DNA of 64,000 nucleotides from a virus (taxonomy: Duplodnaviria; Heunggongvirae; Uroviricota; Caudoviricetes): the IMG/VR virus record IMGVR_UViG_3300028800_000057; one strand, given 5' to 3'. Below the pieces are notes generated by a model, which had not been told where the DNA came from, did not search any database, and saw nothing but the letters and a program-made list of their open reading frames with translations. Every line of letters begins with the position of its first letter. Positions within the stretch are counted from its first letter, which is position 1. Positions 6,498 through 26,094 of this stretch are shown piece after piece. The translations under genes were made by a program, and so were the position numbers.

Positions 6498-6510
6498 ATC
6501 ACAATTTTAC

Positions 6511-6598: not shown

Positions 6599-6771
6599 CT
6601 AAGCCCGAATCATCAGGGATCATCTTACCTCTGTTACCTGACTTGGGCTGAAGCTGCTGAACTCTTGTAAGATGAGGGAAGCGGAAGCTGAATGGCAGTC
6701 GGTCTTGAGGGTCCGATCCAGCAAGATTTCTGAGGGTGCGCACCCAATAATGAGATCCTGCCAAACTTTAT

Positions 6772-6856
6772 GGAAGGTAAATCTGGATCTGGTCTGGAGC
6801 CCGCCTGCTGAGCGGTGCGTAGGTAACACTATGGCGTTCGAATCGTCTGCCTTCCG
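6772..6856 (+). tRNA. tRNA-Ser(GCT), type II
   Basis: Acceptor GGAAGGT/GCCTTCC, anticodon loop CTGCTGA, long variable arm, T-loop TTCGAAT. Confidence 0.55.
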
Positions 6857-6872
6857 CTGGTGTAACTTTAGT

Positions 6873-7433
6873 ATGCGAGTCTGCTCTTGTGGTAAAGAAG
6901 AAACCCCAGATGAGCCTTTTTACGATAAGAGTGCTGTCTGTAGGAAGTGCTACTACTTGAAGAAGGAGGGTACTGCTAAGATCTATCGAGATAACCAACG
7001 AATTAGGGATATGTATAATAGACTTGATCGGGATCGAAGAGCTAATCCTAGATTCAGATCCGGGTTCATACTCAAGGACTCTAAACAGTCAGATAGGAGG
7101 GCAGGGCGGTCAAATGACTTGACCAAAGAGATTATCGAGAAGTTAATCTCACAAGAGTGTCAGTATTGTGGTGAGACCTCACTTAAAATGACTTTGGATC
7201 GTAGAGGTAACTCACTTGGGCATCTTGAGTCCAATGTAATACCGTGTTGTATACGATGTAACTACATAAGAAGAGATATGCCTTATGAGGCTTGGATTCT
7301 ATTGAGTCCATTTCTTCGATTAGTTCGAGAGTCTGGTTTATTTGGTTCTTGGACTTGTGGTGTGGGTAATCGGACAAATGGAAGGGATGGGGTGAGTGGT
7401 CGCCCGCCAGCTTGGAAACCTGGATGCCCGTAA
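6873..7433 (+). CDS. HNH homing endonuclease
   Basis: CQYCGE...LDRRGNSLGHLESNVIPCCIRCN motif. The ORF track starts at 6672, but that part overlaps tRNA-Ser(GCT), so the start is taken at the ATG after the tRNA. The 3' end overlaps tRNA-Ser(GGA). Confidence 0.55.
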   Translation: MRVCSCGKEETPDEPFYDKSAVCRKCYYLKKEGTAKIYRDNQRIRDMYNRLDRDRRANPRFRSGFILKDSKQSDRRAGRSNDLTKEIIEKLISQECQYCGETSLKMTLDRRGNSLGHLESNVIPCCIRCNYIRRDMPYEAWILLSPFLRLVRESGLFGSWTCGVGNRTNGRDGVSGRPPAWKPGCP

Positions 7434-7462
7434 GGACCGCAGTTCGACTCTGCTCTCTTCCG
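7380..7462 (+). tRNA. tRNA-Ser(GGA), type II
   Basis: Acceptor GGAAGGG/CTCTTCC, anticodon loop TTGGAAA, long variable arm, T-arm CGCAGTTCGACTCTGCT. Confidence 0.55.
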
Positions 7463-7500
7463 CTACTTGATCAAGTTTCACTTATAGGGTACTTCTTGGT

Positions 7501-8370
7501 GTGGAAGATCCTATTGTCCAGAGAGTGGCCCGTCGTTTTCAAGCGGCTGCTCGTAAGAGACCTCTGGATCCAGAGAAGATGACAAAGCTCTTACTCTGGG
7601 TTCGAAAGAATCCAAAGCTAGGGAAAACACTCAAGGAGCTATGGCCAGTCTTCGACTATCTTGGTTGGACAATCGAGCCCCTCAGGGGAGGAACCAAGTT
7701 CACTGCCCCAAACGGAGCTGTATTCGAGACTGGAGTCTTCTTCGATTACATCGGGAGGGAGTACCTATTCATCATTCGAAACGCTGAGGGTGAGACCCTA
7801 GAGAAGTGGTTGACGAAGAATCACTTCCAGGATCAAGTACTCGAAGCTCTGCAGATGGAGTCCTACGAAGCTGAGACCGAGAGGAAGAAGCAAGAGCGTG
7901 AGGAGAGGGCTAGGGTTGGTAAGGCAACCTGCCCATGCTGCTTCAGGGCCTTCATGCTGCTGCCCAGGGCTAAGAAGGGTGACAGGTCGATGCCCGGGGT
8001 CGTCCTCCACGGGTACAAGCGTCCTGGCATAGGCTACCTCCAAGGAGAGTGCTTCGGCAACGGGTGGCCCCCCTTCGAGCTTAGCTCAGAGGGTACCAAG
8101 GAGTACCTCACGCACCTAGGTCCGATACTGAAGGGGCTGACTGAGTACTTGGGTCGACTCGAACGGGACGAAGAAGACACTCTGGTCATCGGTTTCATGA
8201 AGGCATATTACCGAAATGATACGCCTCCTTACGATTGGGATCGTTACCGAGAGATGGCAATCAGCCATCAGAAGGCTCAGGTTCGGGAAGTTACTCAGGT
8301 CATGGGGCTGGTTAGGAGCAAGTTGGGCTCTTGGGAGCCACACCCCGAGCGTTTAGAAATCAAGCTCTAA
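7501..8370 (+). CDS. hypothetical protein with RVAR(R)F leader
   Basis: 289-aa ORF with N-terminus MEDPIVQRVARRFQAA. Confidence 0.5.
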   Translation: MEDPIVQRVARRFQAAARKRPLDPEKMTKLLLWVRKNPKLGKTLKELWPVFDYLGWTIEPLRGGTKFTAPNGAVFETGVFFDYIGREYLFIIRNAEGETLEKWLTKNHFQDQVLEALQMESYEAETERKKQEREERARVGKATCPCCFRAFMLLPRAKKGDRSMPGVVLHGYKRPGIGYLQGECFGNGWPPFELSSEGTKEYLTHLGPILKGLTEYLGRLERDEEDTLVIGFMKAYYRNDTPPYDWDRYREMAISHQKAQVREVTQVMGLVRSKLGSWEPHPERLEIKL

Positions 8371-8690
8371 TAGTCGTCTTATGCTATTGTCCTGATGTGG
8401 AAGACCTGACTATCATCTCCAGAGTGTCCGCTCGTTTCGCTTCATCCACCCTTGCCAAAGGGGACCTTCTTAGGGTTTGGGTGAAGCGTGGTGACTGGTG
8501 GACAGAGATGCGTCGTGGAGTCCAGCTTGAAGTGAAAGCAGTCAATGGTGATGATATCACAGTCAACCACTACGGCTGGGCCACTTCCGGGTGGACAATG
8601 AAGTTACCCCCAGGCCAAGACTTGTCAGGAAAGTTCAAGTTAGAGGGTGATGCAAGGTTTCGTAGATCTCTTGTAGTTGATAAGGTCTGA
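8331..8690 (+). CDS. hypothetical protein
   Basis: 119-aa ORF. Confidence 0.35.
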   Translation: MGATPRAFRNQALIVVLCYCPDVEDLTIISRVSARFASSTLAKGDLLRVWVKRGDWWTEMRRGVQLEVKAVNGDDITVNHYGWATSGWTMKLPPGQDLSGKFKLEGDARFRRSLVVDKV

Positions 8691-8882
8691 GTGATGATAC
8701 CCTTGAGAGTTACTTGGTTCACGACCAAGCCGCTGACGGCGGCAAGGAGGAACCATGGCAAACTTCAAGAGACGGCATCGGCGCCGAGGTGGTATCAAGG
8801 GTTGTTGCGGAATGTGTATGCTCCGTAAGACTGATGGTCGACGGAACCACAGACGATTGACCCAACAAGAACTGGCAAGCAC

Positions 8883-9242
8883 TTGCTCCGAACGGGAGCA
8901 AGTGCAAGACCTTGGTGTAGCACGAGGATGGTGTACGAAGACATCCGCGAGTTGATGACCTCTATCATGGTGTACGTGAAAGAGAACCCGGGATGTGTCG
9001 TCGTCTCCGATGACACCCCCAAAGACTTACTCTTTGGGTTCACCTTGAGGGACATCAATCCATTCTTGCTAACTCGGCCCACCTGGAGAATCAGAACGAG
9101 GGACTTCAGGTCCTCAGTCGCTAAGATTCCGGACAAGCCTCGCGACATCCTGATCGATTACTTCTACTCTGGGTACAAGCGCCAGGTTCTGGCTAACCTA
9201 CTCACCAATAACGGGTCACCAGAGATGAGTATCTCGGTCTAA
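8883..9242 (+). CDS. hypothetical protein
   Basis: 119-aa ORF. Confidence 0.35.
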   Translation: MLRTGASARPWCSTRMVYEDIRELMTSIMVYVKENPGCVVVSDDTPKDLLFGFTLRDINPFLLTRPTWRIRTRDFRSSVAKIPDKPRDILIDYFYSGYKRQVLANLLTNNGSPEMSISV

Positions 9243-9277
9243 GGGTCGAAGTCCGGTAGCTTTAGCTTAGTTTTCAT

Positions 9278-9350
9278 GCCCCAGTAGCTCAGTGGATAGA
9301 GTGTCGGTTTCCTAAACCGAATGCCGCTGGTTCGAGTCCAGCCTGGGGCA
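9278..9350 (+). tRNA. tRNA-Arg(CCT)
   Basis: GCTCAGTGGATAGAG D-arm, anticodon arm TCGGT-TTCCTAA-ACCGA, T-arm GCTGGTTCGAGTCCAGC. Confidence 0.75.
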
Positions 9351-9351
9351 C

Positions 9352-9481
9352 CGCGGAGAATGCAGTAAGGACTACAATTAATCAGCGTGTCACGGGTTCG
9401 AGTCCCGTCGTCCGCTTCGGCGGATGTAGCTCAGTTGGCAGAGCAGCCGAACACAATGTCTTTGCGATTCTTGTCTCCGCA
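9352..9481 (+). ncRNA. tRNA-derived structured element: conserved motif, then T-arm plus 3' acceptor strand, then a 5' acceptor strand plus D-arm
   Basis: AGAATGCAGTAAGGACTACAAT motif, then T-arm ACGGGTTCGAGTCCCGT plus CGTCCGC, a 5-nt spacer, then GCGGATGTAGCTCAGTTGGCAGAGC, ending in TCTCCGC. That end is the exact complement of GCGGAGA at 9352-9358. Confidence 0.3.
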
Positions 9482-9487
9482 AACTAT

Positions 9488-9561
9488 TGCCCTCTGATGC
9501 TGCTTGGGTAGGCAGCCGGCTTGTCACGCCGGTGTTGACGGGTTCAAATCCCGTAGGGGGC
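9488..9561 (+). tRNA. tRNA-Asp(GTC)
   Basis: Acceptor GCCCTCT/AGGGGGC, anticodon arm CCGGC-TTGTCAC-GCCGG, T-arm ACGGGTTCAAATCCCGT, CCA follows. Confidence 0.7.
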
Positions 9562-9589
9562 GCCAATCTTTTAATGCTAGAACCATGGT

Positions 9590-10144
9590 ATGATCCTTCG
9601 TCTGCGTATTTTTGACTTCGATGGGACGCTCTTCAATAGTCCCCAACCACCGAATTGGTGGAAGGACCCCGCTGGGTGGTTCTACAGTATCGAGTCAATG
9701 ACCCCGCCGTGTCTCGCAGAGACACCCTCCGATGACTGGTGGATTGAATCAACCGTCAGTGACGTCAGAGACTCTCTGAGTGATAGGTCCAATTACGTGG
9801 TCCTACTGACAGGTCGCCAGTGGACGGTCTTCGCTGATAGGGTTCATGAGCTTCTGGAGCAGAAGAGTCTGAAGTTCGATGAGATTCACTTGTCGGACCG
9901 AGTTGATACTGTGGACTTCAAGGTCGAGTGTATCAAGAGGTTGCTTTCAGAGCACCCCACGGTTGAGGTCGTCGAGATGTGGGATGACATGTTAGATCGA
10001 ATCCCACCCTGTAGGGCTGCAGTCGATGGCGCCGGTGTCAAGTTCAAGCTCCACAAAGTGGACATGAAAGAGCGCAAGTCTCCTTGCACTGAAGATGAGT
10101 TTCTTACCAAGAAAGTAGTCTCACGCTACGCTTCCTTGGTGTAA
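9590..10144 (+). CDS. HAD-superfamily phosphatase
   Basis: Motif I FDFDGTLF, motif II LLTGR and a C-terminal DD motif (MWDDMLD). Confidence 0.55.
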   Translation: MILRLRIFDFDGTLFNSPQPPNWWKDPAGWFYSIESMTPPCLAETPSDDWWIESTVSDVRDSLSDRSNYVVLLTGRQWTVFADRVHELLEQKSLKFDEIHLSDRVDTVDFKVECIKRLLSEHPTVEVVEMWDDMLDRIPPCRAAVDGAGVKFKLHKVDMKERKSPCTEDEFLTKKVVSRYASLV

Positions 10145-10148
10145 ATAT

Positions 10149-10220
10149 AGGGGTATCTTTCAATTGGTAGGAAAGCGGTCTCCAAAACCGCCAATCGTGG
10201 TTCGAGTCCACGTGCCTCTG
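10149..10220 (+). tRNA. tRNA-Trp(CCA)
   Basis: Anticodon arm GCGGT-CTCCAAA-ACCGC, T-arm CGTGGTTCGAGTCCACG. The acceptor is paired using G-U pairs. Confidence 0.65.
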
Positions 10221-10230
10221 CAAAGTATCT

Positions 10231-10422
10231 ATGAAACATCCTTGTGCTTGGTGCGGACAACGACCTGTTGTCTATCGAGGTACTGAGTACTGTAGCTATC
10301 AGTGCTGGGTCGACTCCTTGCACGCGGTTCAAGGTGAGCCCGTTCGAGAAGACCCACCACCCCCTAAGCTGAATGGTGTAGTTCAACTTGACTTGTTTGA
10401 AAAGCTCATGCATACTCTATGA
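10231..10422 (+). CDS. small Cys-containing hypothetical protein
   Basis: 63-aa ORF with CAWCG...CSYQC. Confidence 0.3.
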   Translation: MKHPCAWCGQRPVVYRGTEYCSYQCWVDSLHAVQGEPVREDPPPPKLNGVVQLDLFEKLMHTL

Positions 10423-10428
10423 GCCTAT

Positions 10429-10499
10429 TGGGATATCGTCTAATGGTAGGGCAGCGGACTCTGAATCCGTCTATCCAGGTTCAAGTCCTGGTATCCCAA
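10429..10499 (+). tRNA. tRNA-Gln(CTG)
   Basis: Acceptor TGGGATA/TATCCCA, anticodon loop CTCTGAA, T-arm CCAGGTTCAAGTCCTGG. Confidence 0.7.
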
Positions 10500-10526
10500 C
10501 TAACTTACCTATGAGCTACTGACTAG

Positions 10527-11012
10527 GTGGACCGCCTAATCAGAAGAATTGTTGCTCGGTGGAACTTCAAGGTCGCTATGTCGGGGTACCGCCCCGATAT
10601 TCCACAGTGGGTCTTTGATCGGTACGCGACCAGAGTATCTTTTCAGGGTAACCCGCAGATTGATCGTGAGCTCCTCAACGAGGGTAGAGAATCAATTAGT
10701 GCTCTTCTTCCTAGCTTTCTTTCAGTACTTAGGAGGTCACTAGGGGACCGGTACTCGATGAACTCGAGTCAAACCTCGACTGACATGTTCTACTTCTTTG
10801 CTCCGCCCCAGCCAATTGACTCTATTGCGATGCACCTAGGGAGTCATGGGGGCAAGCTCAGGTTGGATTTGAGTTACTTGCCACGTGATCTTAAGGGTGG
10901 GATCAACCTATCCAAGATTGTGGAACTCATGGAGATCATCGAAGACCCTGAGTTGGTTGGGCTTCACATGATGCGCATGATTAAGAAGCTCATGGCTAAG
11001 ATTCGTAAGTAA
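10527..11012 (+). CDS. hypothetical protein with RIVARW leader
   Basis: 161-aa ORF with N-terminus MDRLIRRIVARW. Confidence 0.45.
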   Translation: MDRLIRRIVARWNFKVAMSGYRPDIPQWVFDRYATRVSFQGNPQIDRELLNEGRESISALLPSFLSVLRRSLGDRYSMNSSQTSTDMFYFFAPPQPIDSIAMHLGSHGGKLRLDLSYLPRDLKGGINLSKIVELMEIIEDPELVGLHMMRMIKKLMAKIRK

Positions 11013-11014
11013 AT

Positions 11015-11087
<73 letters not shown>

Positions 11088-11091
11088 CTAA

Positions 11092-11337
11092 GGGCGGGAT
11101 AGCCTAAACTGGATAGGCACCATAAAAAACGGAATGTGTATGGGCTGTGATGGCCCCAACGCAAGACAGGAGGGAGGGGAGCTAGGTAGGGCGTCGCTCG
11201 GACCTAGACAACTCCGGATGGTCTCGGGCAAGGTTGCGGATGCACCGAATGGCAGTGAGATCCACGGTCGCTAGGGAAGCGCGTTTCCTAAGAGCCCTTT
11301 GTGTTGAGTGCGGGTTCGATTCCCGTCCCGTCCACCA
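11092..11337 (+). ncRNA. tRNA-like element with a roughly 170-nt internal insertion (intron-containing tRNA or other structured RNA)
   Basis: 5' GGGCGGG plus a D-arm-like segment at 11092-11118. 3' T-arm GCGGGTTCGATTCCCGT plus CCCGTCC-A-CCA at 11305-11340. The two ends are fully complementary. Confidence 0.3.
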
Positions 11338-11515
11338 ATCTTCTTCTTGTGGTTTAGCTGAGGTTACTATGGAAGAGATCTTGAATCAGCCGAAGGCTGA
11401 ACCCAAGAAGGAACCAAACGTTCAAGTTTGTGGTTATTGCAATGGTTGGTGCCATCAAGGTGAGTATCTTCATCATGACCTTGATTGTCAGCGTCCGGAT
11501 CAGAACAATTGATAT

Positions 11516-11587
11516 GGGGCCATCGTCCAATCGGGAGGACACTAGCTTTGCAAGCTAGGAACGTCGGTTCGACTCCGTCTGGTTCCA
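11516..11587 (+). tRNA. tRNA-Ala(TGC)
   Basis: Anticodon arm CTAGC-TTTGCAA-GCTAG, T-loop TTCGACT, CCA follows. Confidence 0.7.
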
Positions 11588-11668
11588 CCACTAATCAAGT
11601 AGGTCGCCTCTCTTGTACGGAGAGCTGGTAAGAGTGAGGGTAGCATCGCCACACTTGATTAGCATTAT

Positions 11669-11741
11669 GGGGCTGTAGCTTAGTTGGGAAAGCGTTTCCC
11701 TCGCACGGGAAAGATTGAGAGTTCGAATCTCTTCAGCTCCA
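11669..11741 (+). tRNA. tRNA-Ala(CGC)
   Basis: Acceptor GGGGCTG/CAGCTCC, anticodon loop CTCGCAC, T-arm GAGAGTTCGAATCTCTT. Confidence 0.55.
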
Positions 11742-11747
11742 CAATAT

Positions 11748-11820
11748 GCTGGTGTAGCTCAATTGGTAGAGCTCCTGCCTTGTAAGCAGGGGGTTGCGGG
11801 TTCAAGTCCCATCACCAGCT
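11748..11820 (+). tRNA. tRNA-Thr(TGT)
   Basis: Acceptor GCTGGTG/CACCAGC perfect, GCTCAATTGGTAGAGC D-arm, anticodon arm CCTGC-CTTGTAA-GCAGG, CCA follows. Confidence 0.75.
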
Positions 11821-11829
11821 CCAATCAAT

Positions 11830-11902
11830 GCGGGAGTAGCTCAGTTGGTAGAGTATTTGCTTCCCAAGCAAAATGTCGAGGGTTCGATTCCCTTCTCCCG
11901 CT
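11830..11902 (+). tRNA. tRNA-Gly(CCC)
   Basis: Acceptor GCGGGAG/CTCCCGC, anticodon arm TTTGC-TTCCCAA-GCAAA, T-arm GAGGGTTCGATTCCCTT. Confidence 0.75.
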
Positions 11903-11927
11903 CTGTTTCATCACCCCTTGTCTCGTA

Positions 11928-11951
11928 TGAGAATGCCGGTGGAACTACATT
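11928..11951 (+). promoter_or_regulatory. conserved post-tRNA motif, copy E
   Basis: GAGAATGCCGGTGGAACTACATTT, 25 nt after tRNA-Gly(CCC) and about 50 nt upstream of ORF 12000. Confidence 0.4.
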
Positions 11952-11999
11952 TCCAGGGTCGTCCAATCGAACTAAGGACACTGGCCTGATTCGCCAGAA

Positions 12000-12398
12000 A
12001 TGCTGGTTAGAGCCCAGCCCCCGGAGCCTAACCCTCTCGGTGTACTGGTCAGTGTGGTATACCGAATGGACTTTCTAGAGCTACCAAACGATCGTAAGCT
12101 TTTTGCTGAGCACCTCGTCACCTTCCTCAACGAGTGCTTCAAGACTGACCCTGAGGCTATCAAGTCCCTGTTCGCTCATCGAGTACCGGTGAACGAGGCT
12201 ATGGCAGACCACCCAACGGTCCAAGTGTCCCCAGGGGACCCTCCGACAATGAGCATCCTCGGTCTCCTCAATGGCTTCGTGGGTGTTATTCCGGGTACAG
12301 ACTCAATCGGGTATGTCTGTGGGAACTACGACGATGAGGACCACGACAAACTACTTGGCTTTAGCGTTCACAAGAAGGCAATAGAAGCCAATGGCTGA
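12000..12398 (+). CDS. hypothetical protein
   Basis: 132-aa ORF. The start is uncertain. Confidence 0.4.
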   Translation: MLVRAQPPEPNPLGVLVSVVYRMDFLELPNDRKLFAEHLVTFLNECFKTDPEAIKSLFAHRVPVNEAMADHPTVQVSPGDPPTMSILGLLNGFVGVIPGTDSIGYVCGNYDDEDHDKLLGFSVHKKAIEANG

Positions 12399-12870
12399 TC
12401 AAGCGGCACTCTCCGACACTAAGTGGGTGTTCCCTCTCTCAGAGGGTTTCCACCAGAAACCTAATAATGATGAGGACTCACCTCTAGCAAAAGAGTTCAA
12501 GTCTTTCTTCCCTGATGGCTTCGTGCCTGATCAGAAAGCTGAGTACATTGTATTCAGGTTTGAGAACGAGGACGGGTCCTATTGGGGCGGTGAGGACATT
12601 GACTTGAAGGCTCGATTTGATGAGTTCTTCAAGTGGGGGTTCCGAAGTCCCAGGGATGGTTCAATTCTCCCTATGCTTTGGCAAAGGCCGGCTTGGCTTA
12701 CCCTCCGAGCTTGGCAGCTCCTCAGGTTGTCCGTATCCCATAGGAACTGGGATGACATACCGCCCAGTGAGTTGACTATAAAGATCCTGCAAGCTAGGAA
12801 AGACTACTTCGACAAAGGGATGTACAAAAAACATGGTTTCCCCGTTCGTTTGATCATCACTTTAGAGTAA
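12391..12870 (+). CDS. hypothetical protein
   Basis: 159-aa ORF overlapping the upstream stop codon. Confidence 0.45.
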   Translation: MADQAALSDTKWVFPLSEGFHQKPNNDEDSPLAKEFKSFFPDGFVPDQKAEYIVFRFENEDGSYWGGEDIDLKARFDEFFKWGFRSPRDGSILPMLWQRPAWLTLRAWQLLRLSVSHRNWDDIPPSELTIKILQARKDYFDKGMYKKHGFPVRLIITLE

Positions 12871-12874
12871 CTAT

Positions 12875-12947
12875 GCCCATGTAGCACAGTTGGTAGTGCG
12901 CATCCTTGGTAAGGATGAGGTCATCGGTTCGATTCCGATCCTGGGCT
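12875..12947 (+). tRNA. tRNA-Thr(GGT)
   Basis: GCACAGTTGGTAGTGC D-arm, anticodon arm CATCC-TTGGTAA-GGATG, T-arm ATCGGTTCGATTCCGAT, CCA follows. Confidence 0.7.
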
Positions 12948-13064
12948 CCACAATCCTTGTATTCCGAAAAACTTCATGCTAGGGTTGTCTCCTACTCAAC
13001 GGGCCATCGTTGAGTAGTGGTGGAGGGTAGCCGGGAACGGCCGCCCCTAGCGAAGCCCGATGCA

Positions 13065-13092
13065 AGTCGGGCTTTCGTCTTTCTATGCGGGT
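13065..13092 (+). terminator. rho-independent terminator-like hairpin plus T-run
   Basis: GCCCGA-TGCAAG-TCGGGC followed by TTTCGTCTTTCT. Confidence 0.4.
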
Positions 13093-13159
13093 AACTCCTC
13101 AATGGTGAGGTGCTTCGTTGCCAACGAAGACCCGGCGGGTTCGATCCCCGCTACCCGCT
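13087..13159 (+). tRNA. tRNA-Gly(GCC)
   Basis: Acceptor GCGGGTA/TACCCGC perfect, anticodon arm CTTCG-TTGCCAA-CGAAG, T-arm GCGGGTTCGATCCCCGC. Confidence 0.7.
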
Positions 13160-13187
13160 CTAAACCTCTTATGGTAGGTTCCAGAGT

Positions 13188-13823
13188 ATGACTCGCGAGC
13201 TGATCGCCTTCCAAGACGCCCTGATTGCCGATAGTGTTGCAACTCGCTTCGTCGAAGCGAGTATCAAGACTCACAAGACGGCAAGCGTCAGCAAGCCGTT
13301 GTATGGCCATGATTCGATGACCAATGCTTTCGTGGTTGACGACTACCCGTACGGCTACCGCCTTCGATGCAAGATTCGGTACTGGGTAGAGTTCAACCCA
13401 ACCAAGGGCTATCGGATGTTTAGTCAGACCACGAATCCCAAGATTACGGGAAAAGAGGTTTGGAACAAGCCAAAGGCTTCAACGTTTACTGAGTTGGCAG
13501 GTTGTCTCTACTTGGATTCGAGTGACAAGGTTCAGTTCGGAACCCTCGGGATATACTCAAGTGCTGAGCAGTGTCTTGAGTTCATGAAGGACTTCCCCAA
13601 GTTCGAGGGTACCAAGAGATTGGGTATTTGGGCCGTCAAGAAGCTAGAGTTCTGCTACAAGATGATGACGGGGAAGGCTCACTGGGTTGTCAATGAGGTG
13701 AAGCAAGAGACCAGTGACTCCGACAAAGGTCGGTATCGAGATGAGGCCAAGCAGTGGTCACAGCTTGCCAAGAAGCTTGGTCAGAACTATCCGGATTTCG
13801 TAGACGAGGAACTAGGCCTGTAG
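13188..13823 (+). CDS. hypothetical protein with VATRFVEA leader variant
   Basis: 211-aa ORF. Confidence 0.5.
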   Translation: MTRELIAFQDALIADSVATRFVEASIKTHKTASVSKPLYGHDSMTNAFVVDDYPYGYRLRCKIRYWVEFNPTKGYRMFSQTTNPKITGKEVWNKPKASTFTELAGCLYLDSSDKVQFGTLGIYSSAEQCLEFMKDFPKFEGTKRLGIWAVKKLEFCYKMMTGKAHWVVNEVKQETSDSDKGRYRDEAKQWSQLAKKLGQNYPDFVDEELGL

Positions 13824-13854
13824 CAGGGTATCGGGTTCCTCGTTTTAGTTACAT

Positions 13855-13927
13855 GTCGAGGTTCCCGAGTGGTAAGGGCGCGGTCTGCAAAACCGTAGTT
13901 TCGTCAGTTCGATCCTGACCCTCGACT
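13855..13927 (+). tRNA. tRNA-Cys(GCA)
   Basis: Acceptor GTCGAGG/CCTCGAC perfect, anticodon loop CTGCAAA, T-arm GTCAGTTCGATCCTGAC. Confidence 0.65.
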
Positions 13928-13931
13928 CTAT

Positions 13932-14004
13932 GCGGACATAGCTCAATTGGTAGAGTTTCTGCCTTCCAAGCAGATCGTTGAGGGTTCGAGTCCCTTTGTC
14001 CGCT
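13932..14004 (+). tRNA. tRNA-Gly(TCC)
   Basis: GCTCAATTGGTAGAG D-arm, anticodon arm TCTGC-CTTCCAA-GCAGA, T-arm GAGGGTTCGAGTCCCTT, CCA follows. Confidence 0.75.
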
Positions 14005-14008
14005 CCAG

Positions 14009-14034
14009 GGAGAATGCTTGCTCGGAAGTACATT
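14009..14034 (+). promoter_or_regulatory. conserved post-tRNA motif, copy F
   Basis: GGAGAATGCTTGCTCGGAAGTACATT after tRNA-Gly(TCC), upstream of ORF 14158. Confidence 0.4.
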
Positions 14035-14157
14035 TAGTTCAAACCTGAAATCCCCCCGCTACTTATGGGGGATCGCCTTATGGAGGCATCTTTCGGCTTC
14101 TCTTGTCTCCCTCAGTCTAATGAACTTATCCAGTGGGTAAGTGTGTTTGATGACCTA

Positions 14158-14982
14158 ATGACCCTTCGTGTTGCGGCTCGGTACGTTCGAGCACGAGCGA
14201 AGATATCACTTAGTACTGGGGAGGATGACGAGACCCAACGAAAGGGTAAGATCCCTCCCAGGTGGAAAGAGTGGTTGGACCTTACACAAGAAGGGGGTAA
14301 GCGTAAGGTTCCTAACCCAAGTGCAGATCCTCAGTCTCGTGAGAGAAACTCGGAGGTTTCCTTCAGTACAGCTCTAAAGAACCCTAGCTTTTATGGCAAG
14401 GCACTCAAGGAGTACTACAACTGGGTAGGGAAGCAGGACGATAAGGGTGGTACTTCACCAAAGAAGCCAACGCCTTCTGAAGAGTCCACTTCAGATGCTA
14501 AGCCCAAAGAAGAAGACTCAAAACCAAAGTCCAAGGGTGATGATTCGAAAGATACTGCTCCGTCCAATCCTTTAGAGTTGGACGACAAGCGACTAGACGC
14601 TATCATCGAGGAGAATAAAGAGCACTTTGACCAGATCACGAAAGAGATGACTGAGTCGGTTAAGGGGTTTAAGTCTAGTCACATGAAGAAGCGCTACCCC
14701 GGGGATCGGTACCCAAGCCTCTTCAAGAAGGCTTTTGATCGACTCACTCCTCAAGAGCAAGCACTCTGGGCTGGTGGGGATAAGCTAGGCAAGCACTTCC
14801 AAGACTACATGTCTAAGAAGGATGCTGAGGGTCAACGAGTAGGTCGAGGTGCTGTTGCTGGTTGGAGGATTGCAGGTGATTTCACTGAATCTGAATCAGC
14901 TCAGAACTTAATTGGTATGGTTGAAGCTTGGGGCATCAAGGGTTGCCAGCAGTTCAACCTGAACTTGACTAAAGTTACTTGA
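14158..14982 (+). CDS. hypothetical Lys/Asp-rich protein with RVAARY leader
   Basis: The ORF track starts at 14065. The leader consensus points to the internal start MTLRVAARYVRA. Confidence 0.45.
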   Translation: MTLRVAARYVRARAKISLSTGEDDETQRKGKIPPRWKEWLDLTQEGGKRKVPNPSADPQSRERNSEVSFSTALKNPSFYGKALKEYYNWVGKQDDKGGTSPKKPTPSEESTSDAKPKEEDSKPKSKGDDSKDTAPSNPLELDDKRLDAIIEENKEHFDQITKEMTESVKGFKSSHMKKRYPGDRYPSLFKKAFDRLTPQEQALWAGGDKLGKHFQDYMSKKDAEGQRVGRGAVAGWRIAGDFTESESAQNLIGMVEAWGIKGCQQFNLNLTKVT

Positions 14983-15177
14983 CTCCGCTCGTCTCATAGA
15001 TAATCATCCTATCAGATCGGATGTACATGAAGATGAAAGTGGTTCGAGTCTCGGCCACTGAGTTCGAATTGGAAGACGGTAGGGTATTTCCCCACGTCAC
15101 CCCACTCGAACCGGTTCCGACCCCCGAAGAGTTTCAAGTACATTACGACCTTTGGTCAGATCGGTTGAAGCGAAAGG

Positions 15178-15801
15178 ATGTCCCATGGACTTGTCTCGCT
15201 CAAAAAAGCGGCTGAAATCCTTGGTTGCGGAACCTCCACACTTCGAACTTGGGATAAGAACAAGAGCCTCGTAGCCGTTCGAACTCCTGGTGGTCAGCGC
15301 CGATACCGCACTGAAGACCTCGACCGCTTCCAGGGAATCATCAAGAAGACCTCCAAGAAGTCGGAGTCCGTGGCAGTCTACGCTCGTGTTTCTAGTCACG
15401 AGCAGAAGGCTAAAGGAGACCTCGACCGCCAGAAGGGAAGGCTTCTAGAGCATTGCGTCAAGCAGAGCTACTCGGTGACCCACGTCATGGAGGAGGTTGG
15501 ATCTGGGATGACGGACACTCGGCCGAAGATGCTACGGCTTCTTGAGCTGGCAACGAGGGGCGAGATTGGGCGAGTGGTTATCGAGCACAAAGATCGGTTA
15601 GCTCGGTTCAATTTCAACATATTCCAGAAGTTCTTCGAGAGTCACGGTGTACAGGTTGAATGGCTGGAAAACGTGCTTCCGAAGTCTTACGAGGCGGAAC
15701 TCGTTGAGGATATGGTCAGCCTTATGTCCAGCTTCTCAGCCAAAGTATATGGGAAACGCTCTGCTGAGAACCGCCGAAAGAAGAAGGCTGAAGCGGCATG
15801 A
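15178..15801 (+). CDS. tnpA: IS607-family TnpA (serine recombinase with N-terminal MerR-like HTH)
   Basis: An N-terminal HTH (AAEILGCGTSTLRTW) followed by a resolvase catalytic core (YARVSSHEQ...DRQ...R). Sits immediately upstream of, and overlapping, a TnpB gene. Confidence 0.7.
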   Translation: MSHGLVSLKKAAEILGCGTSTLRTWDKNKSLVAVRTPGGQRRYRTEDLDRFQGIIKKTSKKSESVAVYARVSSHEQKAKGDLDRQKGRLLEHCVKQSYSVTHVMEEVGSGMTDTRPKMLRLLELATRGEIGRVVIEHKDRLARFNFNIFQKFFESHGVQVEWLENVLPKSYEAELVEDMVSLMSSFSAKVYGKRSAENRRKKKAEAA

Positions 15802-17225
15802 AGAAGTGTAGGTTCTTCATGTTGCACTCCGAGTGCAATCCAGGGAAGGTTAAAGCTATCGAGGCCCTCCATGCTGAGTATGTGCTTTACGTTCGGATAT
15901 GCGTCCAGACGATGCTCTCCGCTCGCCGACTAAGCTTGCCCCGCTCGGAGAAGCAAGAGTTCTTTCCCCGAGCTGAGAACCTAACTTCACAGATTGAGAA
16001 GAACGCCCGTGATCATGCCATCCAGATCGTAAGTACCTGGGCCAAGGGGATCTATGCCAGGAAGCTCAAGACTTTCATCAGGTTATCCTTCAATGAAGGG
16101 ACTTTCGATGAGGACTTTCGGAAGCAACTCTGTACGGTCGGCAAGTATTTGGTTCACGATCCGAGTAAGACCGTGACCCAAGAGGCTATCAATCTGTATT
16201 GGGCTTGGCTCTCTGACCCAGAAGTAGTTGGAAACTTCCCAAGTGTGTCTAGTCGAATCCCAATGAGGATGTCTGAAAACACCTGCTCATTGGAAGATCC
16301 AGAAGAGGCTGTTCACGCTTATCTTTGGCTCAAGATCTCGACCTTAGTTTCTCGTAAGCTTGCCTGGCTCCCGCTGGTTGGAAACCCGTATGTCAAGAAG
16401 TCCTCTGATGTGGGTAAGGGGATTCATGCTAGAAAAGACCGAAAAGGCCGGTGGCGATTCGAAGCTGTTGACACCAAAGAATGGCTGATCTGTGAGGCGG
16501 AGCCAGACCTTCCAATGATCGGAGTAGATGTCGGGCTAAACGTAGTAGCGGCTACTTCGAGCGGACACACGTTTGGGGCAGACTTGAAACCCAAGTTTAA
16601 TCGGCTCTACAACAAGGTCAGGGCGGTTCGAGCGAACCGCCAAAGGCAGGGACTCAAAGAAAACAGCCCTAGACTCGACAGGCTTGAGTCCAAGCTCTCC
16701 GGCTTGACTAAGAGCATCACTGGACGGGTCTCCAATGAGCTTCTTCGAGCTTATCCAGAATCAGTCTTCGTCCTTGAGGACTTGGATCTTCGGGGTTGTC
16801 GTGGTCAAAAACGCTTTTGCTACAGAGCCTTAGCTCACGCTCTTGAGAGCAAAGCTCCGACCGATAAGGTGAATCCCGCTTATTCTAGTCAAACATGCCC
16901 TTCTTGTGGGCATGTCTCCAGGCTCAATCGGTCTGGAACCAGTTTCATCTGCCGCCAATGCGGCAGGATTTCACATGCTGATGTGGTAGGAGGGATCAAT
17001 CTGCTCAGACGTTCTGAGAGCAAACAGATTGGTCTCAATGATCACCCATCGGAAGTGAAGAGAATGCTTGTGAGGCTATACTGGTCTAGGAGGAATCCTA
17101 ACCAGGACTGTCCACAAGACTTCTTGAATAAATACGCGCCATTACCGTATGGCCGGAGGCTTACTACCAAGGGACGTTCTCGAAAGAGAAGCATTGGCAT
17201 AGCTTTTAATCAGGTAGTTGCTTGA
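15798..17225 (+). CDS. tnpB: TnpB (RuvC-like RNA-guided nuclease, IS605/IS607 family)
   Basis: RuvC-I (IGVDVGLN), RuvC-II (VFVLEDLD), zinc finger CPSCGH...CRQCG and RuvC-III (HADVVGGINL). Confidence 0.8.
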   Translation: MKKCRFFMLHSECNPGKVKAIEALHAEYVLYVRICVQTMLSARRLSLPRSEKQEFFPRAENLTSQIEKNARDHAIQIVSTWAKGIYARKLKTFIRLSFNEGTFDEDFRKQLCTVGKYLVHDPSKTVTQEAINLYWAWLSDPEVVGNFPSVSSRIPMRMSENTCSLEDPEEAVHAYLWLKISTLVSRKLAWLPLVGNPYVKKSSDVGKGIHARKDRKGRWRFEAVDTKEWLICEAEPDLPMIGVDVGLNVVAATSSGHTFGADLKPKFNRLYNKVRAVRANRQRQGLKENSPRLDRLESKLSGLTKSITGRVSNELLRAYPESVFVLEDLDLRGCRGQKRFCYRALAHALESKAPTDKVNPAYSSQTCPSCGHVSRLNRSGTSFICRQCGRISHADVVGGINLLRRSESKQIGLNDHPSEVKRMLVRLYWSRRNPNQDCPQDFLNKYAPLPYGRRLTTKGRSRKRSIGIAFNQVVA

Positions 17226-17379
17226 ACCCACGTAAGTTTAAGCAACTTCTTGAGTACGGTTGGACTGATCCAGGCTCAGGATTCTCAGGACAACCCTAAT
17301 ATTGTCAAGATTAAACTGGATGATATCAGTAGAATCATGTTCATCCCAGCTAACAAGTCTAGTAGTTTAGCTGATAGGG

Positions 17380-17964
17380 TTGCGACTCGTTGGTGTATTC
17401 AGCAGGGTGGCAATCGGTAAGGGTCCAATTAATCTCCCCGTAACTCCTGATATGCCCCTAAGTGAGCTTCAAGAGAAGTTGAAGGCTCATGTACGAGGCC
17501 CCGGCGCAGTCTGTCCAGTATGCCGTCAACTCGTGAGGATGGTTGAAAAAGAGCTGAGTGCCCCGATGGCGTACGTCCTCATTCTGATGTACCGTCACTT
17601 CCAGACGGCCTCTGACTGGCTCGACATGAACCAGTACATCTCAAACATGGTGGCGATTGGGTCCGAGGTGAAGGGTGGGGAGTGGTCGAAGATGAAGTAC
17701 TGGCAACTCATCGTCGAGCGCCCGCCGGAGAAGAAGTCAATCGTGAACCCCAAGCCTCCAGTCAAGACTCAGGGGATGTACAAGATGACAGAGCTTGGCG
17801 CAAGGTTCGTTCTCGGCAAGATCAAGATCCCTCGAAGTGTCTGGCTCTACAATGGCAAGGTCATCGAGGTACATAAGAAGTCCGTAAGCATTCAAGAATG
17901 CTTAGGAAAAGACTACAACTACGAAGCACTCATGGCTGGGAACCTAGGAAGCTTCGCAGTCTGA
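17380..17964 (+). CDS. hypothetical protein
   Basis: 194-aa ORF downstream of tnpB. Confidence 0.45.
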   Translation: MRLVGVFSRVAIGKGPINLPVTPDMPLSELQEKLKAHVRGPGAVCPVCRQLVRMVEKELSAPMAYVLILMYRHFQTASDWLDMNQYISNMVAIGSEVKGGEWSKMKYWQLIVERPPEKKSIVNPKPPVKTQGMYKMTELGARFVLGKIKIPRSVWLYNGKVIEVHKKSVSIQECLGKDYNYEALMAGNLGSFAV

Positions 17965-17969
17965 TTTAT

Positions 17970-18042
17970 GCCCCCATAGCTCAGTGGATAGAGCAAAGGT
18001 TTTCTAAACCTGAGGTCGAAAGTTCAAGTCTTTCTGGGGGTA
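17970..18042 (+). tRNA. tRNA-Arg(TCT)
   Basis: GCTCAGTGGATAGAGC D-arm, anticodon loop TTTCTAA, T-arm GAAAGTTCAAGTCTTTC, CCA follows. Confidence 0.7.
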
Positions 18043-18047
18043 CCAAT

Positions 18048-18120
18048 GTCCGCGCAGCTCGATTGGAGGAGCAACAGCTTGCGAAGCTGGAGGTTGGAGG
18101 TTCGACCCCTCTCGCGGACG
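18048..18120 (+). tRNA. tRNA-Arg(GCG)
   Basis: Acceptor GTCCGCG/CGCGGAC perfect, anticodon loop TTGCGAA, T-arm GGAGGTTCGACCCCTCT, CCA follows. Confidence 0.65.
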
Positions 18121-18125
18121 CCAAT

Positions 18126-18199
18126 GATCTCGTAGCATAACGGACTTGTGCAGCGGCCTCCGAAGCCGACGACTGTGGGTTCGAATCCCACCGGGATCA
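18126..18199 (+). tRNA. tRNA-Arg(CCG)
   Basis: Anticodon loop CTCCGAA, T-arm GTGGGTTCGAATCCCAC, CCA follows. The D-arm is weak. Confidence 0.5.
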
Positions 18200-18221
18200 C
18201 CAACTACGGTGTATTAGGGCC

Positions 18222-18557
18222 ATGGCTGTAATCACAATCAATGGCAAACGCATAGAGGTTGATGGCTCAGGTACTGTCTCAATCAACAATGGGGTTATCA
18301 AGGTTGATGGGGTGACCGTCGAGAATGGCCTTCATGGAGTCGTCGAAGTCAAGTGGGAAGGTCCTCTTGCTAACCTTCGATCTGATGCTTCAGTCACTTG
18401 TGGGGACGTCACTGGGAACGTGAGTGCGGGAGGTAGTGTCCATGCTGGTAACATTCAATCTACAGTGACCGCCGGTGGGAGTGTCCACGCTGATGACATC
18501 ATCGGGAACGTTAATGCTGGAGGAAGTGTCAACTGTAGAAGTCAAAGATCTCGTTAG
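18222..18557 (+). CDS. small repeat protein (three copies of G-N-V-x-A-G-G-S-V-H-A)
   Basis: 111-aa ORF with internal tandem repeats. Confidence 0.4.
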   Translation: MAVITINGKRIEVDGSGTVSINNGVIKVDGVTVENGLHGVVEVKWEGPLANLRSDASVTCGDVTGNVSAGGSVHAGNIQSTVTAGGSVHADDIIGNVNAGGSVNCRSQRSR

Positions 18558-18561
18558 TTAC

Positions 18562-18635
18562 ACCCCCATAGCTCAATTGGATAGAGCAGAGGTTTTCGAA
18601 GCCTAAGGTTGGAGATTCGAGTTCTCCTGGGGGTA
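18562..18635 (+). tRNA. tRNA-Arg(TCG)
   Basis: GCTCAATTGGATAGAGC D-arm, anticodon loop TTTCGAA, T-arm GGAGATTCGAGTTCTCC, CCA follows. Confidence 0.6.
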
Positions 18636-18640
18636 CCAAT

Positions 18641-18713
18641 GCTGATGTAGCTCAATCGGTAGAGCGGCGCTTTCATAAGGCGAAGGTTGCGGGTTCGAGT
18701 CCCGCTTTCAGCA
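18641..18713 (+). tRNA. tRNA-Met(CAT) (or Ile2)
   Basis: GCTCAATCGGTAGAGC D-arm, anticodon loop TTCATAA, T-arm GCGGGTTCGAGTCCCGC, CCA follows. Confidence 0.65.
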
Positions 18714-18743
18714 CCAAAGTTCTCACTGGGTGTAGTACCTAGG

Positions 18744-18923
18744 ATGGTGAGAATACTCCGAAGGTCGAAGGACGAAGTAGTGGTCATGGACAACGAAGAC
18801 ATAGTTGGTTCTGTAGTCAACCAAGTTGGATGTGTTCAGGTTGCAACTATTGACGGTTCTTTCGTGGTTGTCGACGATGTAGTCAGAGCGGCCAAGCTCC
18901 TCGATGAGCCTTGGCCTGAGTAA
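18744..18923 (+). CDS. small hypothetical protein
   Basis: The ORF track 18687..18923 begins inside a tRNA. The internal ATG at 18744 lies beyond the tRNA. Confidence 0.3.
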   Translation: MVRILRRSKDEVVVMDNEDIVGSVVNQVGCVQVATIDGSFVVVDDVVRAAKLLDEPWPE

Positions 18924-18930
18924 CTTTCAT

Positions 18931-19005
18931 GCCCCTGTAGCTCAATTGGTAGAGCGCTGGTCCTACAAACCAGAGGTTTTGTACGTTCAAGTCGTATCGG
19001 GGGTA
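18931..19005 (+). tRNA. tRNA-Val(TAC) with C32-C33 anticodon loop
   Basis: GCTCAATTGGTAGAGC D-arm, anticodon arm CTGGT-CCTACAA-ACCAG, T-loop TTCAAGT. Confidence 0.5.
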
Positions 19006-19010
19006 CTAAC

Positions 19011-19095
19011 GCACGAGTGGCGGAACTAGGCAGACGCTCCGGACTTAGAATCCGGCGGGGTAATTCCCATGGAGGTTCAATTCCTCTCTCGTGCA
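19011..19095 (+). tRNA. tRNA-Leu(TAG), type II
   Basis: Acceptor GCACGAG/CTCGTGC perfect, anticodon arm CCGGA-CTTAGAA-TCCGG, long variable arm, T-arm GGAGGTTCAATTCCTCT, CCA follows. Confidence 0.75.
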
Positions 19096-19354
19096 CCAAT
19101 CTCCAATGAAAGAAGGTTTTATGCTCAAGTTCAAGATACGATGGCTTAGTTCAAGACTCGTTATGGGTCGTGGCCTAAGCTGGGTGGTATAGCTGAATCC
19201 AATAGCTCAGTTCTGAGAGGCTCAGCTGCATTCATCGCCTCATTCAGGCAAATGCTAGCGATCTCTGCTCGGAATTGAGCCGGTTTTCTTGGGTTCACCA
19301 AAACTAAGGGCATAGAACTCTCACCTTCAATACGCCGTTTTGTCTTAGATCTTC

Positions 19355-19585
19355 CTACTCACCTGTTGGTAAATAGGTGACCTTCCTAGAAGGTTCATTC
19401 ACGATCGAGGCCTTCTCAATACAGTACCTTGTTCTGAGGTAGAAGTCACCGTCTCTAGCAATCGTCTCCGCAAGATCTGGGGTGGCTCCTCGAACAGTGC
19501 ACTTTCCAGTGTACGTTCGGTTGAACTCGCAATTTATCGAACAACACCTTGTATCAAACGGGATAATTACTCTTAGAGCTGGCAT
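19355..19585 (-). CDS. small Cys-rich hypothetical protein
   Basis: 76-aa ORF on the minus strand between the tRNA block and an AT-rich region. Confidence 0.3.
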   Translation of the reverse strand: MPALRVIIPFDTRCCSINCEFNRTYTGKCTVRGATPDLAETIARDGDFYLRTRYCIEKASIVNEPSRKVTYLPTGE

Positions 19586-19737
19586 GCCATTACTCTACTC
19601 AATAAGATGATAAAACTCAATGACATTTAAGCAACCTTCGATTAATCAAGTCTTCATTCATTGATACATGAGGCTTACAGACCTCAACGTAGGCATGGCT
19701 CGCTCTTAGTTATCTTCTTGTTGGGTTTTCTTCGTAG

Positions 19738-21015
19738 ATGCGCGAAGACGTCTTAACTCTCCGAGTAGCTGCTCGCTTCATTCAAGCAGACATCTTGACC
19801 AAGCAATGGCTCATGGGGGTCAAGAGGGGCTGGACTGCCGTCATCAAGTCCCCGCATGAGATGGATGACAAGCACAAGGCTCTCATTGAGTTCCTGAGGA
19901 ACCTAGGGGATCAGGTACTCTTCCAAAGGCATGGCATGAACATTGTGTTCACCGGTTCTAGGGAGCGGATCAAGTTCGAGAACCTTTTGGCAAAGACCAA
20001 AGGTCAGGTTTTCGAGGTGTACACAGAATACGAAAAAATAGCCAGTAATTACAGAGAGGTAAGTGAGAAGCGCGAGAAGTTCCTGGATGAGATCGAAGAG
20101 CGAACTGGGGACAACATCCGAAAGCTTCACGGATCTGATGAGTTCATTCGCAAATACCCTGAATACGAGCCATATCACGCAAAGTGGACTAAGGCCATGG
20201 ATGCTGTTGATCAGTATCGGTGGCATCCAGAAGTGGTGTGGGCTCCGGCTACCAGAGTCTTCGATGCTTTGATGAAGCACCTCTACGCTGATGCCAAGGC
20301 TACCGCTGAGTACAAGAAGGAACACGGGGAAGATCCAATCGATGACTTCTACTCTACGGTTCCTAAGGAATTTGATCTCAACAGCGCCAAGGTTGTTGTC
20401 ATTGATGACTCAGTGAGTCGGAATGACGTTCGTGATTACATCAAGTACATCAACCGAGCACAACAGATGTTGAAAAACAATGGTTTCGGAAAGTTGTGGT
20501 ACGGGGTGATGTTTGTTGAGGCCAAGAATCACAAGAAAACCCAAGAAGAGATTGAGCTTGCTCAGAAGTGGGGTTACAGTAGTTCTGGGGATGCTGGGGA
20601 GTATAACCACGATCTGGACCAAGTCTATATTAGGAATAAGCCAGAGGGTTTCGTTACCCGTATCGTGATCCATGAGCTTGGGCACCGATACTGGTTCAAG
20701 TTCATGACCCCAGCGAATCGAGCTCGATTCAATGCCTTAGTTCAAACCAAGACTACAGACAGATTCAGGGATTACCCGCAGGGACCTACTGATGAAGAGG
20801 GTAATCCTAAGCCGGTTGCACCATTGGGTGAGTACGCTAGCTCCAACATTGAAGAGGCTTTCGCGGAAGTGTTTGAGGGTTATGTGTCTGGAGGGGGTCT
20901 CACTCGAGACCAACTTGAGTCTTTCCGATCAGTTCTATCCTCTGAGCGGAACCAAGAATATCCTTTGGTTTCTAGTAGTGGACACTATCAGATCCGTCGG
21001 GTAGTAGATCTTTAG
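19738..21015 (+). CDS. putative zinc metallopeptidase (HExxH) with RVAARF leader
   Basis: VIHELGHRYW HExxH motif. N-terminus MREDVLTLRVAARFIQA. Confidence 0.5.
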   Translation: MREDVLTLRVAARFIQADILTKQWLMGVKRGWTAVIKSPHEMDDKHKALIEFLRNLGDQVLFQRHGMNIVFTGSRERIKFENLLAKTKGQVFEVYTEYEKIASNYREVSEKREKFLDEIEERTGDNIRKLHGSDEFIRKYPEYEPYHAKWTKAMDAVDQYRWHPEVVWAPATRVFDALMKHLYADAKATAEYKKEHGEDPIDDFYSTVPKEFDLNSAKVVVIDDSVSRNDVRDYIKYINRAQQMLKNNGFGKLWYGVMFVEAKNHKKTQEEIELAQKWGYSSSGDAGEYNHDLDQVYIRNKPEGFVTRIVIHELGHRYWFKFMTPANRARFNALVQTKTTDRFRDYPQGPTDEEGNPKPVAPLGEYASSNIEEAFAEVFEGYVSGGGLTRDQLESFRSVLSSERNQEYPLVSSSGHYQIRRVVDL

Positions 21016-25747: not shown

Positions 25748-26094
25748 GGGAATGATCGGTTTCGACGTTGGGTGAAAGGATCTCTTGCGTGTAAGCGGCT
25801 CTCGAACCGCTCATCAATCGAGAAACGTTAATTGCGAACGACAATGCAATCGCCGCTGCGGCCTAAGAAACCGCGCGACCAGTTCCTAGAGAGATAGTCT
25901 TGGTATCGAAGGAGCTGCCAATCACAAGGCTGGCTTACCTCACGGGCTCCCGGTGAGGTGGCGAGATAAACAGGGTGATAGGTCGTAGGCCGAATCCACG
26001 AACTCAGTCGAGGGGGATACTTCGACTACGCACGTGAATGAGAGAGATACCAGACAACTGACGGACCGGGGTTCGATTCCCCGCATTTCCACCA
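25748..26094 (+). ncRNA. ssrA: tmRNA (ssrA), tag peptide ANDNAIAAAA
   Basis: 5' GGGAATGATCGGTTTCGACG and 3' ACGGACCGGGGTTCGATTCCCCGCATTTCC-A-CCA. The acceptor halves are complementary. Internal reading frame GCG AAC GAC AAT GCA ATC GCC GCT GCG GCC TAA at 25834-25866. Confidence 0.8.

Follow-up and report, generated by a model that had tools for sequence, protein, structure and literature searches.

The window described here is a stretch of 64,000 nucleotides (nt) from a virus of the Caudoviricetes (IMG/VR record IMGVR_UViG_3300028800_000057), belonging to a huge-phage genome of about 443 kb. At positions 14943-17259, on the plus strand, lies an element of 2,317 bp which is very probably an intact, autonomous insertion sequence of the IS607 family; DNA homology with independent copies defines it as complete. 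Its kind is already known, as it is a member of the IS607/TnpB family whose coordinates are corrected here. New are its omega-RNA, of a class absent from Rfam, a prediction of its transposon-adjacent motif (TAM), the disruption of an ADP-ribosyltransferase gene beside it and an undescribed small gene. A first-pass annotation, made from the letters alone, had recognised an IS607-family element with a transposase gene, tnpA, and a gene for an RNA-guided-nuclease homolog, tnpB. Both open reading frames (ORFs) are real and intact, and they overlap each other by 4 nt. All parts of the element described below are located on the plus strand.

The tnpA gene (15178-15801) codes for an IS607-type serine transposase of 207 amino acids (aa). 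Its N-terminal part is a MerR-like helix-turn-helix (HTH) domain (Pfam MerR_1/HTH_17, residues 6-56) and its C-terminal part the catalytic domain with the YARVSS motif (Pfam Resolvase, residues 65-205), which agrees with the MerR-like HTH and resolvase core described in the first pass. TnpA scores 191.8 bits on the NCBIfam model "IS607 family transposase" (transpos_IS607), for which the cut-off is 110. The top PDB match is 6dgc, the catalytic domain of ISC1926 TnpA (E 1.2e-24); the alignment includes the YARVSS..Q motif, and the crystallised catalytic domain of IS1535 TnpA is aligned as well.

TnpB (15798-17225, 475 aa) possesses an intact RuvC triad, D244/E327/D395, and a CxxC..CxxC zinc finger. 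Alignment of 19 homologs with 56-88% identity shows these three residues and the cysteines C367/C370/C385/C388 to be invariant; the full triad and zinc finger had been read from the sequence before, and no mutation of them appeared in this closer alignment. The Cas12f1-like TNB domain of Pfam is matched with 50.2 bits (cut-off 26.3), and the score on the NCBIfam model IS607_TnpB is 32 (cut-off 350). In profile alignment, the catalytic residues fall on the GIDLG, MEDL and NADY motifs of AsCas12f, and the RuvC motifs align also to CasPhi. An AlphaFold2 model (pLDDT 70) yields full-length Foldseek matches to Cas12f, ISFba1 TnpB and ISDra2 TnpB, with E-values from 1e-13 to 1e-10. Ancestry from CasPhi was considered, CasPhi-3 being the top PDB sequence match, and this lead was dropped because the match is limited to about 50 residues, within the zinc-finger/RuvC-III segment, and because Cas12f and TnpB lead the fold search, in which CasPhi ranks about 30th. 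More than 460 homologs of the protein were found, many of them on contigs of 200-620 kb, and an identical protein is encoded on a 443-kb contig. The closest deposited TnpB, 45% identical, comes from a 485-kb uncultured phage, and the window itself has no near match among deposited phages. On the 485-kb phage contig (L034), a weak second TnpB-like match with 25% identity to residues 214-402 is located directly 3' of one copy, at 5488-6096.

The ends of the element were set by comparison of more than 25 diverged copies from other huge-phage contigs. DNA homology to two of these copies, L010/L011, covers 14937-15786 and 15798-17260; their flanks are unrelated to those in the window, and no tRNA genes are found near the L010/L011 insertions. 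When a further copy, L044, is considered together with them, homology begins at about 14937-14940 and stops at 17260, and every flank differs beyond these points. The limits 15178-17380 given by the first-pass annotation are replaced by this comparison, in which homology with independent copies spans about 14940 to 17259/17260. At the right end, the aligned 3' regions of 24 non-redundant copies show a sharp stop after [A/T][C/T]GG (ACGG in 22 copies, ATGG in two); the GG is directly followed by T in 22/24 copies and by unrelated sequence thereafter. The right end in the window reads ...GAGTACGG, its last base being 17259. At the left end, all 15 independent junctions, six from elements with tnpA and nine from tnpB-only elements, consist of [A/G]GGG on the side of the flank and T(T/A)nnn(A/G)ACAG on the side of the element. 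In the window, the left-flank motif, which is the predicted TAM 5'-AGGG-3', occupies 14939-14942 and matches the RGGG of all 15 junctions. The non-coding region of the left end (14943-15026) begins with TTGCCAGCAG and follows the consensus T(T/A)nnn(A/G)ACAG of the 15 copies.

Both junctions in the window contain GG (14941-14942 and 17258-17259), as do 24/24 right ends and 15/15 left junctions, and the GG at 14941-14942 is presumed to be the core dinucleotide used by the serine recombinase. Comparison of the two ends of the element revealed no terminal inverted match. The left end as a whole amounts to 235 nt upstream of tnpA and contains the direct repeat ACTTGACT at 14963 and 14977; by analogy to IS607 biochemistry (PMC6188088), these repeats are presumably TnpA-binding subsites. 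A promoter scan gave one sigma-70-like site in the left end (14979-15007), a count not above chance. Related elements range in size from 1.5 kb (tnpB only) to 3.1 kb.

Omega-RNA, guide and the small third gene

The omega-RNA scaffold was located at 17067-17259, its 5' end being approximate. It overlaps the last ~160 nt of tnpB and ends with ...GAGUACGG, 34 nt beyond the tnpB stop codon. Its presence at the 3' end of tnpB had been rightly foreseen, although the span proposed for it, 17226-17380, was not: only 17226-17259 belongs to the element, and the scaffold lies mostly within tnpB. Folding of the 3' region revealed a covarying structure. In 24 copies analysed by RNAalifold, four helical elements extend over about 17067-17252 and comprise 42 pairs, 32 of which show compensatory double changes. 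Paired cells make up 91.9%, compared to 72.3% in column shuffles, and none of 500 shuffles equalled the observed pairing or covariation. In a register-shift control, where the partner was slid by 1-3 columns, pairing fell to 31-52%. The 3' sequence of the window folded alone has a z of -4.74. The motif GGCAYAGCTTC is kept while the C-terminal tails of TnpB change reading frame between copies, a sign that the RNA itself is under constraint. No Rfam family, RAGATH-18 and group I introns included, matches the 3' RNA at E<=1, and its identity as an IStron, group I intron or RAGATH-18 RNA was rejected on this ground. Likewise, no Rfam group I intron match at E<=1 was found in 13500-19500; the space in the left end is taken up by a protein-coding ORF, with no group I intron.

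Similarity between copies ceases at 17259/17260, and 17261-17380 is unrelated flank. From what is known of TnpB biology, we infer that the flank from 17260 onward provides the guide. The predicted guide template and cognate target, for which a length of 20 nt was assumed (17260-17279, TTGGACTGATCCAGGCTCAG), is thus phage flank beginning with TTGGACTGATCC..., and TTGGACTGATCCAGGCTCAG occurs once in the window.

The 62-aa ORF (15027-15215) is the third gene of this IS607 subfamily and overlaps the start of tnpA by 38 nt. In comparison with L011, its core has undergone synonymous changes only, and in diverged copies it is kept upstream of tnpA at 37-92% identity, with variable C-termini. At least 164 cluster representatives were collected by profile search, nearly all of them 45-100 aa long. 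In 67 of 73 IMG/VR loci, an IS607 tnpA was detected downstream of the small ORF and usually starts 10-50 nt after it; among 49 loci of GTDB genomes, 39 show the same arrangement. Most loci without a downstream tnpA are cut by contig ends. The GTDB loci come mostly from filamentous cyanobacteria and an Anaerolineae metagenome-assembled genome, together with single cases from candidate phyla radiation (CPR) bacteria, Thermotogota, Myxococcota and archaea. The subfamily with the 62-aa gene (loci L050-L171) is represented in huge phages, filamentous cyanobacteria, Anaerolineae, CPR bacteria and archaea. In most cyanobacterial copies of the small ORF, tnpB was undetected with the query used. The small ORF is absent beside TnpA proteins of about 32-35% identity to that of the window (L022, L026 and L089, three loci where this is visible). 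It represents a conserved small gene tightly tied to one branch of IS607 transposases, in a family that the IS607 literature searched describes as having two genes (PMC6188088). The 62-aa protein has no match among curated families and no structural neighbour. That it controls TnpA is only a guess from the position of its gene. The overlap of the two reading frames (15178-15215) includes the run CAAAAAAG (A6), where a +1 slip would fuse both frames. A programmed frameshift of this kind, joining the small ORF to TnpA, was considered and dropped; the small ORF ends in different C-termini in diverged copies.

Insertion site and copies at other loci

To the left, the element is preceded by the N-terminal ~292 codons of an interrupted gene for a DRAT-type ADP-ribosyltransferase homolog (14065-14942, plus strand), which is flank and lies outside the element. 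The truncated ORF continues into the element and stops at 14982. Its homologs, the proteins P0122-P0127 and a protein of the related locus L013 (5001-6197), have 383-428 aa, and most of them possess a C-terminal PF07357 DRAT domain; the domain lost from the window protein is the R/STS/ExE-type catalytic domain. The window protein matches P0123 as far as ...AWGIKG and is then completed by the element-derived CQQFNLNLTKVT and a stop. The DRAT domain was not found anywhere in the 64-kb window. In a 71%-identical relative, available as gene order and not as DNA, the genes code in turn for 208 aa, the DRAT protein of 385 aa, 62 aa and 182 aa; the truncated gene therefore stands at its native place, and about 370 nt or more are missing beside the element. 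In neither L009 (another relative) nor L013 is there significant similarity to the right flank (17260-17406), and a "KIKL" resemblance of this flank to the small ORF after the L013 DRAT gene was likewise not significant. The element is thus associated with a DRAT-type ADP-ribosyltransferase gene of the phage that has lost its catalytic half. Candidate causes for the missing DNA are an adjacent deletion mediated by TnpA, recombination between two copies, a rearrangement and an unrelated deletion.

The locus is flanked by tRNA genes at 13855-14007 and 17970-18202, and the element had been thought to sit amid a tRNA array and to split it into two blocks. In the relatives L009 and L013, a 185-aa gene is already present between tRNA-Gly(tcc) and tRNA-Arg(tct), and the element therefore did not split a contiguous tRNA block. 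It lies within a protein-coding gene, at a point where the tRNA arrays of the relatives have a gap as well. Positions 1-19100 of the window contain 37 tRNA genes mixed with small ORFs, and a tmRNA with the tag ANDNAIAAAA follows at 25748-26094. L009 and L013 have the same tRNA order as the window, with other genes between the tRNAs; the tmRNA tag of L013 is VADLPRDSLGSG.

Copies of the element elsewhere are numerous. TnpB is found at 84-87% identity on three IMG/VR contigs, and 31 IMG/VR loci were obtained by a protein-alignment search; several of the contigs, 126-497 kb long, contain 2-3 copies each. Searches of the 64-kb window using nhmmer with the RNA alignment, tblastn and the left-end motif gave no second copy. 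The flanks differ among L010/L011, L012, L016, L018, L024, L025, L044 and about 15 tnpB-only copies, from which the mobility that defines IS607-family elements follows. One of these copies, L012, has a tnpB (3018-4444) of 79% nt identity that is split by a frameshift into 136 and 311 aa, and a sigma-70 region-4 HTH protein takes the place of tnpA upstream; because of the frameshift and the missing tnpA, it is regarded as a decaying tnpB-only copy. Some relatives carry ORFs between tnpA and tnpB, where the window copy has none: 111 and 144 aa in L015 (3256-4004), 171 and about 85 aa in L016 (3277-4004) and 83 aa in L018 (3753-4004). This gap looks like a variable slot for unannotated passenger cargo.

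At the site itself, the left junction is spanned by all six contigs that contain the truncated gene, from several ENA, JGI and Logan samples. The right junction is spanned by at least six contigs from different samples and assemblers, and all contigs with the downstream 185-aa gene have the right end. Many assemblies have contigs that break off within the element at 15014-15260, and in several of them a further break lies at 17140. L044 (5860-8260) is 100% identical to the window through the left flank and over the initial ~260 nt of the element (to about 15200); thereafter it continues as an ~84% identical variant with a 476-aa TnpB and another right flank (ACAGCAGGTACC...). The switch in L044 and the clustered contig ends point to a second related copy in the same genome or community, or to an assembly switch.

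The ends of the element had been expected to emerge from comparison with related phages that lack it. Relatives did provide them, by way of independent insertions, and no precise empty site was found: there was none among about 170 fetched loci, and L009 and L013, which have no element, are too diverged or rearranged to act as empty sites. A search of IMG/VR with the left flanks of the copies L031 and L026 returned occupied contigs only. An exact 30-mer of the right flank had 0 matches in metagenome_contigs, a collection evidently without this phage.

Interpretation of the element

According to the best-supported reading, the element is a canonical selfish IS607 element. All enzymatic steps of this reading are drawn from homology, while the anatomy, conservation and family mobility are shown by the comparisons above. 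TnpA would excise the element as a circle and integrate it at the GG in RGGG sites, with no terminal inverted repeats or target duplications. The predicted joints are GAGTACGG to TTGCCAGCAG in the circle and CATCAAGGG to TTGGACTGATCC at the excision site. The tnpB transcript would be processed to omega-RNA, with its 3' guide copied from the flank from 17260 onward. TnpB in complex with this RNA would then cut RGGG-flanked DNA matching the guide, either the donor site once vacated or, in a co-infecting phage, an allele free of the element, and recombinational repair after the cut would copy the element back in. The occupied site would be spared, since its right end has ACGG (C at -3) in place of GGG. 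In CboIStron (bioRxiv 10.1101/2023.11.20.567912), TnpA integrates at the GG in TGGG and TnpB uses TGGG as its TAM; the scaffold has UCGG at its end, and the occupied site is shielded by the C at -3. RGGG in the flank together with ACGG at the right end probably reproduces, by analogy, the TGGG/TCGG self/non-self logic of IS607 TnpA/TnpB.

Several observations weigh against this reading. The score of TnpB on the NCBIfam model guided_TnpB is 83.8 bits, where 100 would be required, and the match is confined to residues ~200-410. An uncertainty of about 1-3 nt attaches to the boundary, since comparison does not by itself show whether the invariant G's at the two ends belong to the element or to the flank; the AGGG bases were assigned to the flank following the CboIStron convention and the Lys-Gly codons (AAG GG) of the host gene, and should be taken as flank with this qualification. 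In relatives, the two flanks do not adjoin each other, and the DRAT domain and more are missing; this is therefore no simple cut-and-paste insertion. Finally, no unoccupied allele of the site was found among contigs with the exact neighbouring proteins, all of which are occupied.

The latter two observations are also those expected of a fixed copy, structurally intact and immobile in this phage lineage, which persists as a passenger after insertion plus deletion: every contig spanning the site is occupied in every sample, and with the flanks non-contiguous in relatives the original donor joint is gone. The frameshifted tnpB of the related copy L012 fits this explanation as well. It is nevertheless an unlikely one, given that none of the three ORFs is interrupted, that the catalytic residues are intact, that the omega-RNA and the two ends follow the family consensus, that close variants (82-90% nt identity) sit at other sites and that a variant with another right flank is present in the same sample series.

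The first-pass annotation had also suggested that TnpB might be co-opted for interference with competing elements. In that case, the phage would have domesticated TnpB and its omega-RNA as a weapon for cutting rival phages or mobile elements, and they would no longer serve the transposon. In huge phages, TnpB-like and miniature Cas12 genes are described in the literature as common, and cutting of a competitor's unoccupied allele in co-infection would amount to interference. Yet tnpB is still joined to its transposase within canonical ends, the guide is the adjacent flank and has no other match in the window, and the family behaves as a multi-copy insertion sequence with the same architecture in cyanobacterial and other cellular genomes. 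No CRISPR repeat array was found nearby, in 12000-20000. We therefore consider such co-option very improbable. That a bacterial insertion sequence was mis-joined into a phage contig by assembly is hardly credible: the clustering of contig ends at 15014-15260 and 17140 in several assemblies and the drop from 100% to ~84% identity in L044 at about 15200 are typical of a repeat-induced graph tangle, but the left junction is present in six contigs and the right one in at least six, of differing samples and assemblers, and relatives of the element lie deep within phage contigs of 200-600 kb.

Within the reading as a selfish IS607 element, a wider proposal may be made tentatively, and we rate it as possible rather than probable. 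It holds that a large IS607 subfamily depends for its function on the 62-aa protein as an undescribed third component and, separately, that homing by TnpB drives elements and deletions through phages. If this were true, the 62-aa protein might regulate the serine transposase or set its direction, and homing on unoccupied alleles in co-infection could spread both the elements and the loss of the ADP-ribosyltransferase domain.

For annotation, our results provide precise ends, an RGGG TAM prediction, an omega-RNA structure, a guide position and the identification of an interrupted DRAT-type gene. They also reveal a sizeable clade of TnpB proteins of ~475 aa, largely encoded on very long contigs, those of huge phages included, and with an omega-RNA class that Rfam does not contain. 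The members of this clade are natural variants with known guide boundaries, usable for the testing of compact nucleases. The understanding of IS607/TnpB function is left unchanged by these findings.

Comparison with known systems

With IS607, IS1535, ISC1926 and CboIStron, the element shares a serine transposase with a MerR-like HTH domain, lack of terminal inverted repeats and GG at the junctions. As in the IS607 family and CboIStron, tnpB follows tnpA, the omega-RNA overlaps the 3' end of tnpB and ends with ...CGG, and an NGGG flank is opposed to NCGG. In contrast to CboIStron and IS607, the base at -4 is A/G and not T, and there is no group I intron. The left end includes the 62-aa gene, whereas the IS607 literature has two genes (PMC6188088). 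Compared to typical IS607 elements, TnpB is larger (475 aa) and falls below the cut-offs of NCBIfam IS607_TnpB and guided_TnpB, and the host is a huge phage.

The ISFba1-type IS607 TnpB (PDB 8iaz) has the same overall fold (Foldseek E 4e-12) and likewise takes its guide RNA from the right end. The RNA described here differs from that of ISFba1 in having no match to RAGATH-18 (Rfam, E<=1), and the protein is about 90 aa longer. ISDra2 TnpB, from the IS200/IS605 family, also has the RuvC triad, the zinc finger, an omega-RNA over the 3' end of its gene and a presumed role in homing. Its sequence similarity to the present TnpB is weak (E ~1e-3), and its partner is a Y1 HUH enzyme instead of a serine recombinase; ISDra2 moves as single-stranded DNA at TTGAT-like sites, whereas a double-stranded circle recombining at GG is predicted here. 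Cas12j/CasPhi provides the top PDB sequence match, limited to residues 357-404 (E 3.4e-9 for the single sequence and 6.4e-13 for the profile), and both proteins occur in huge phages. In the fold search, however, CasPhi ranks about 30th, behind Cas12f and TnpB, no CRISPR array of the kind that marks type V-J loci was found in 12000-20000, and the gene described here, unlike that of CasPhi, is borne by a transposon with its own transposase.

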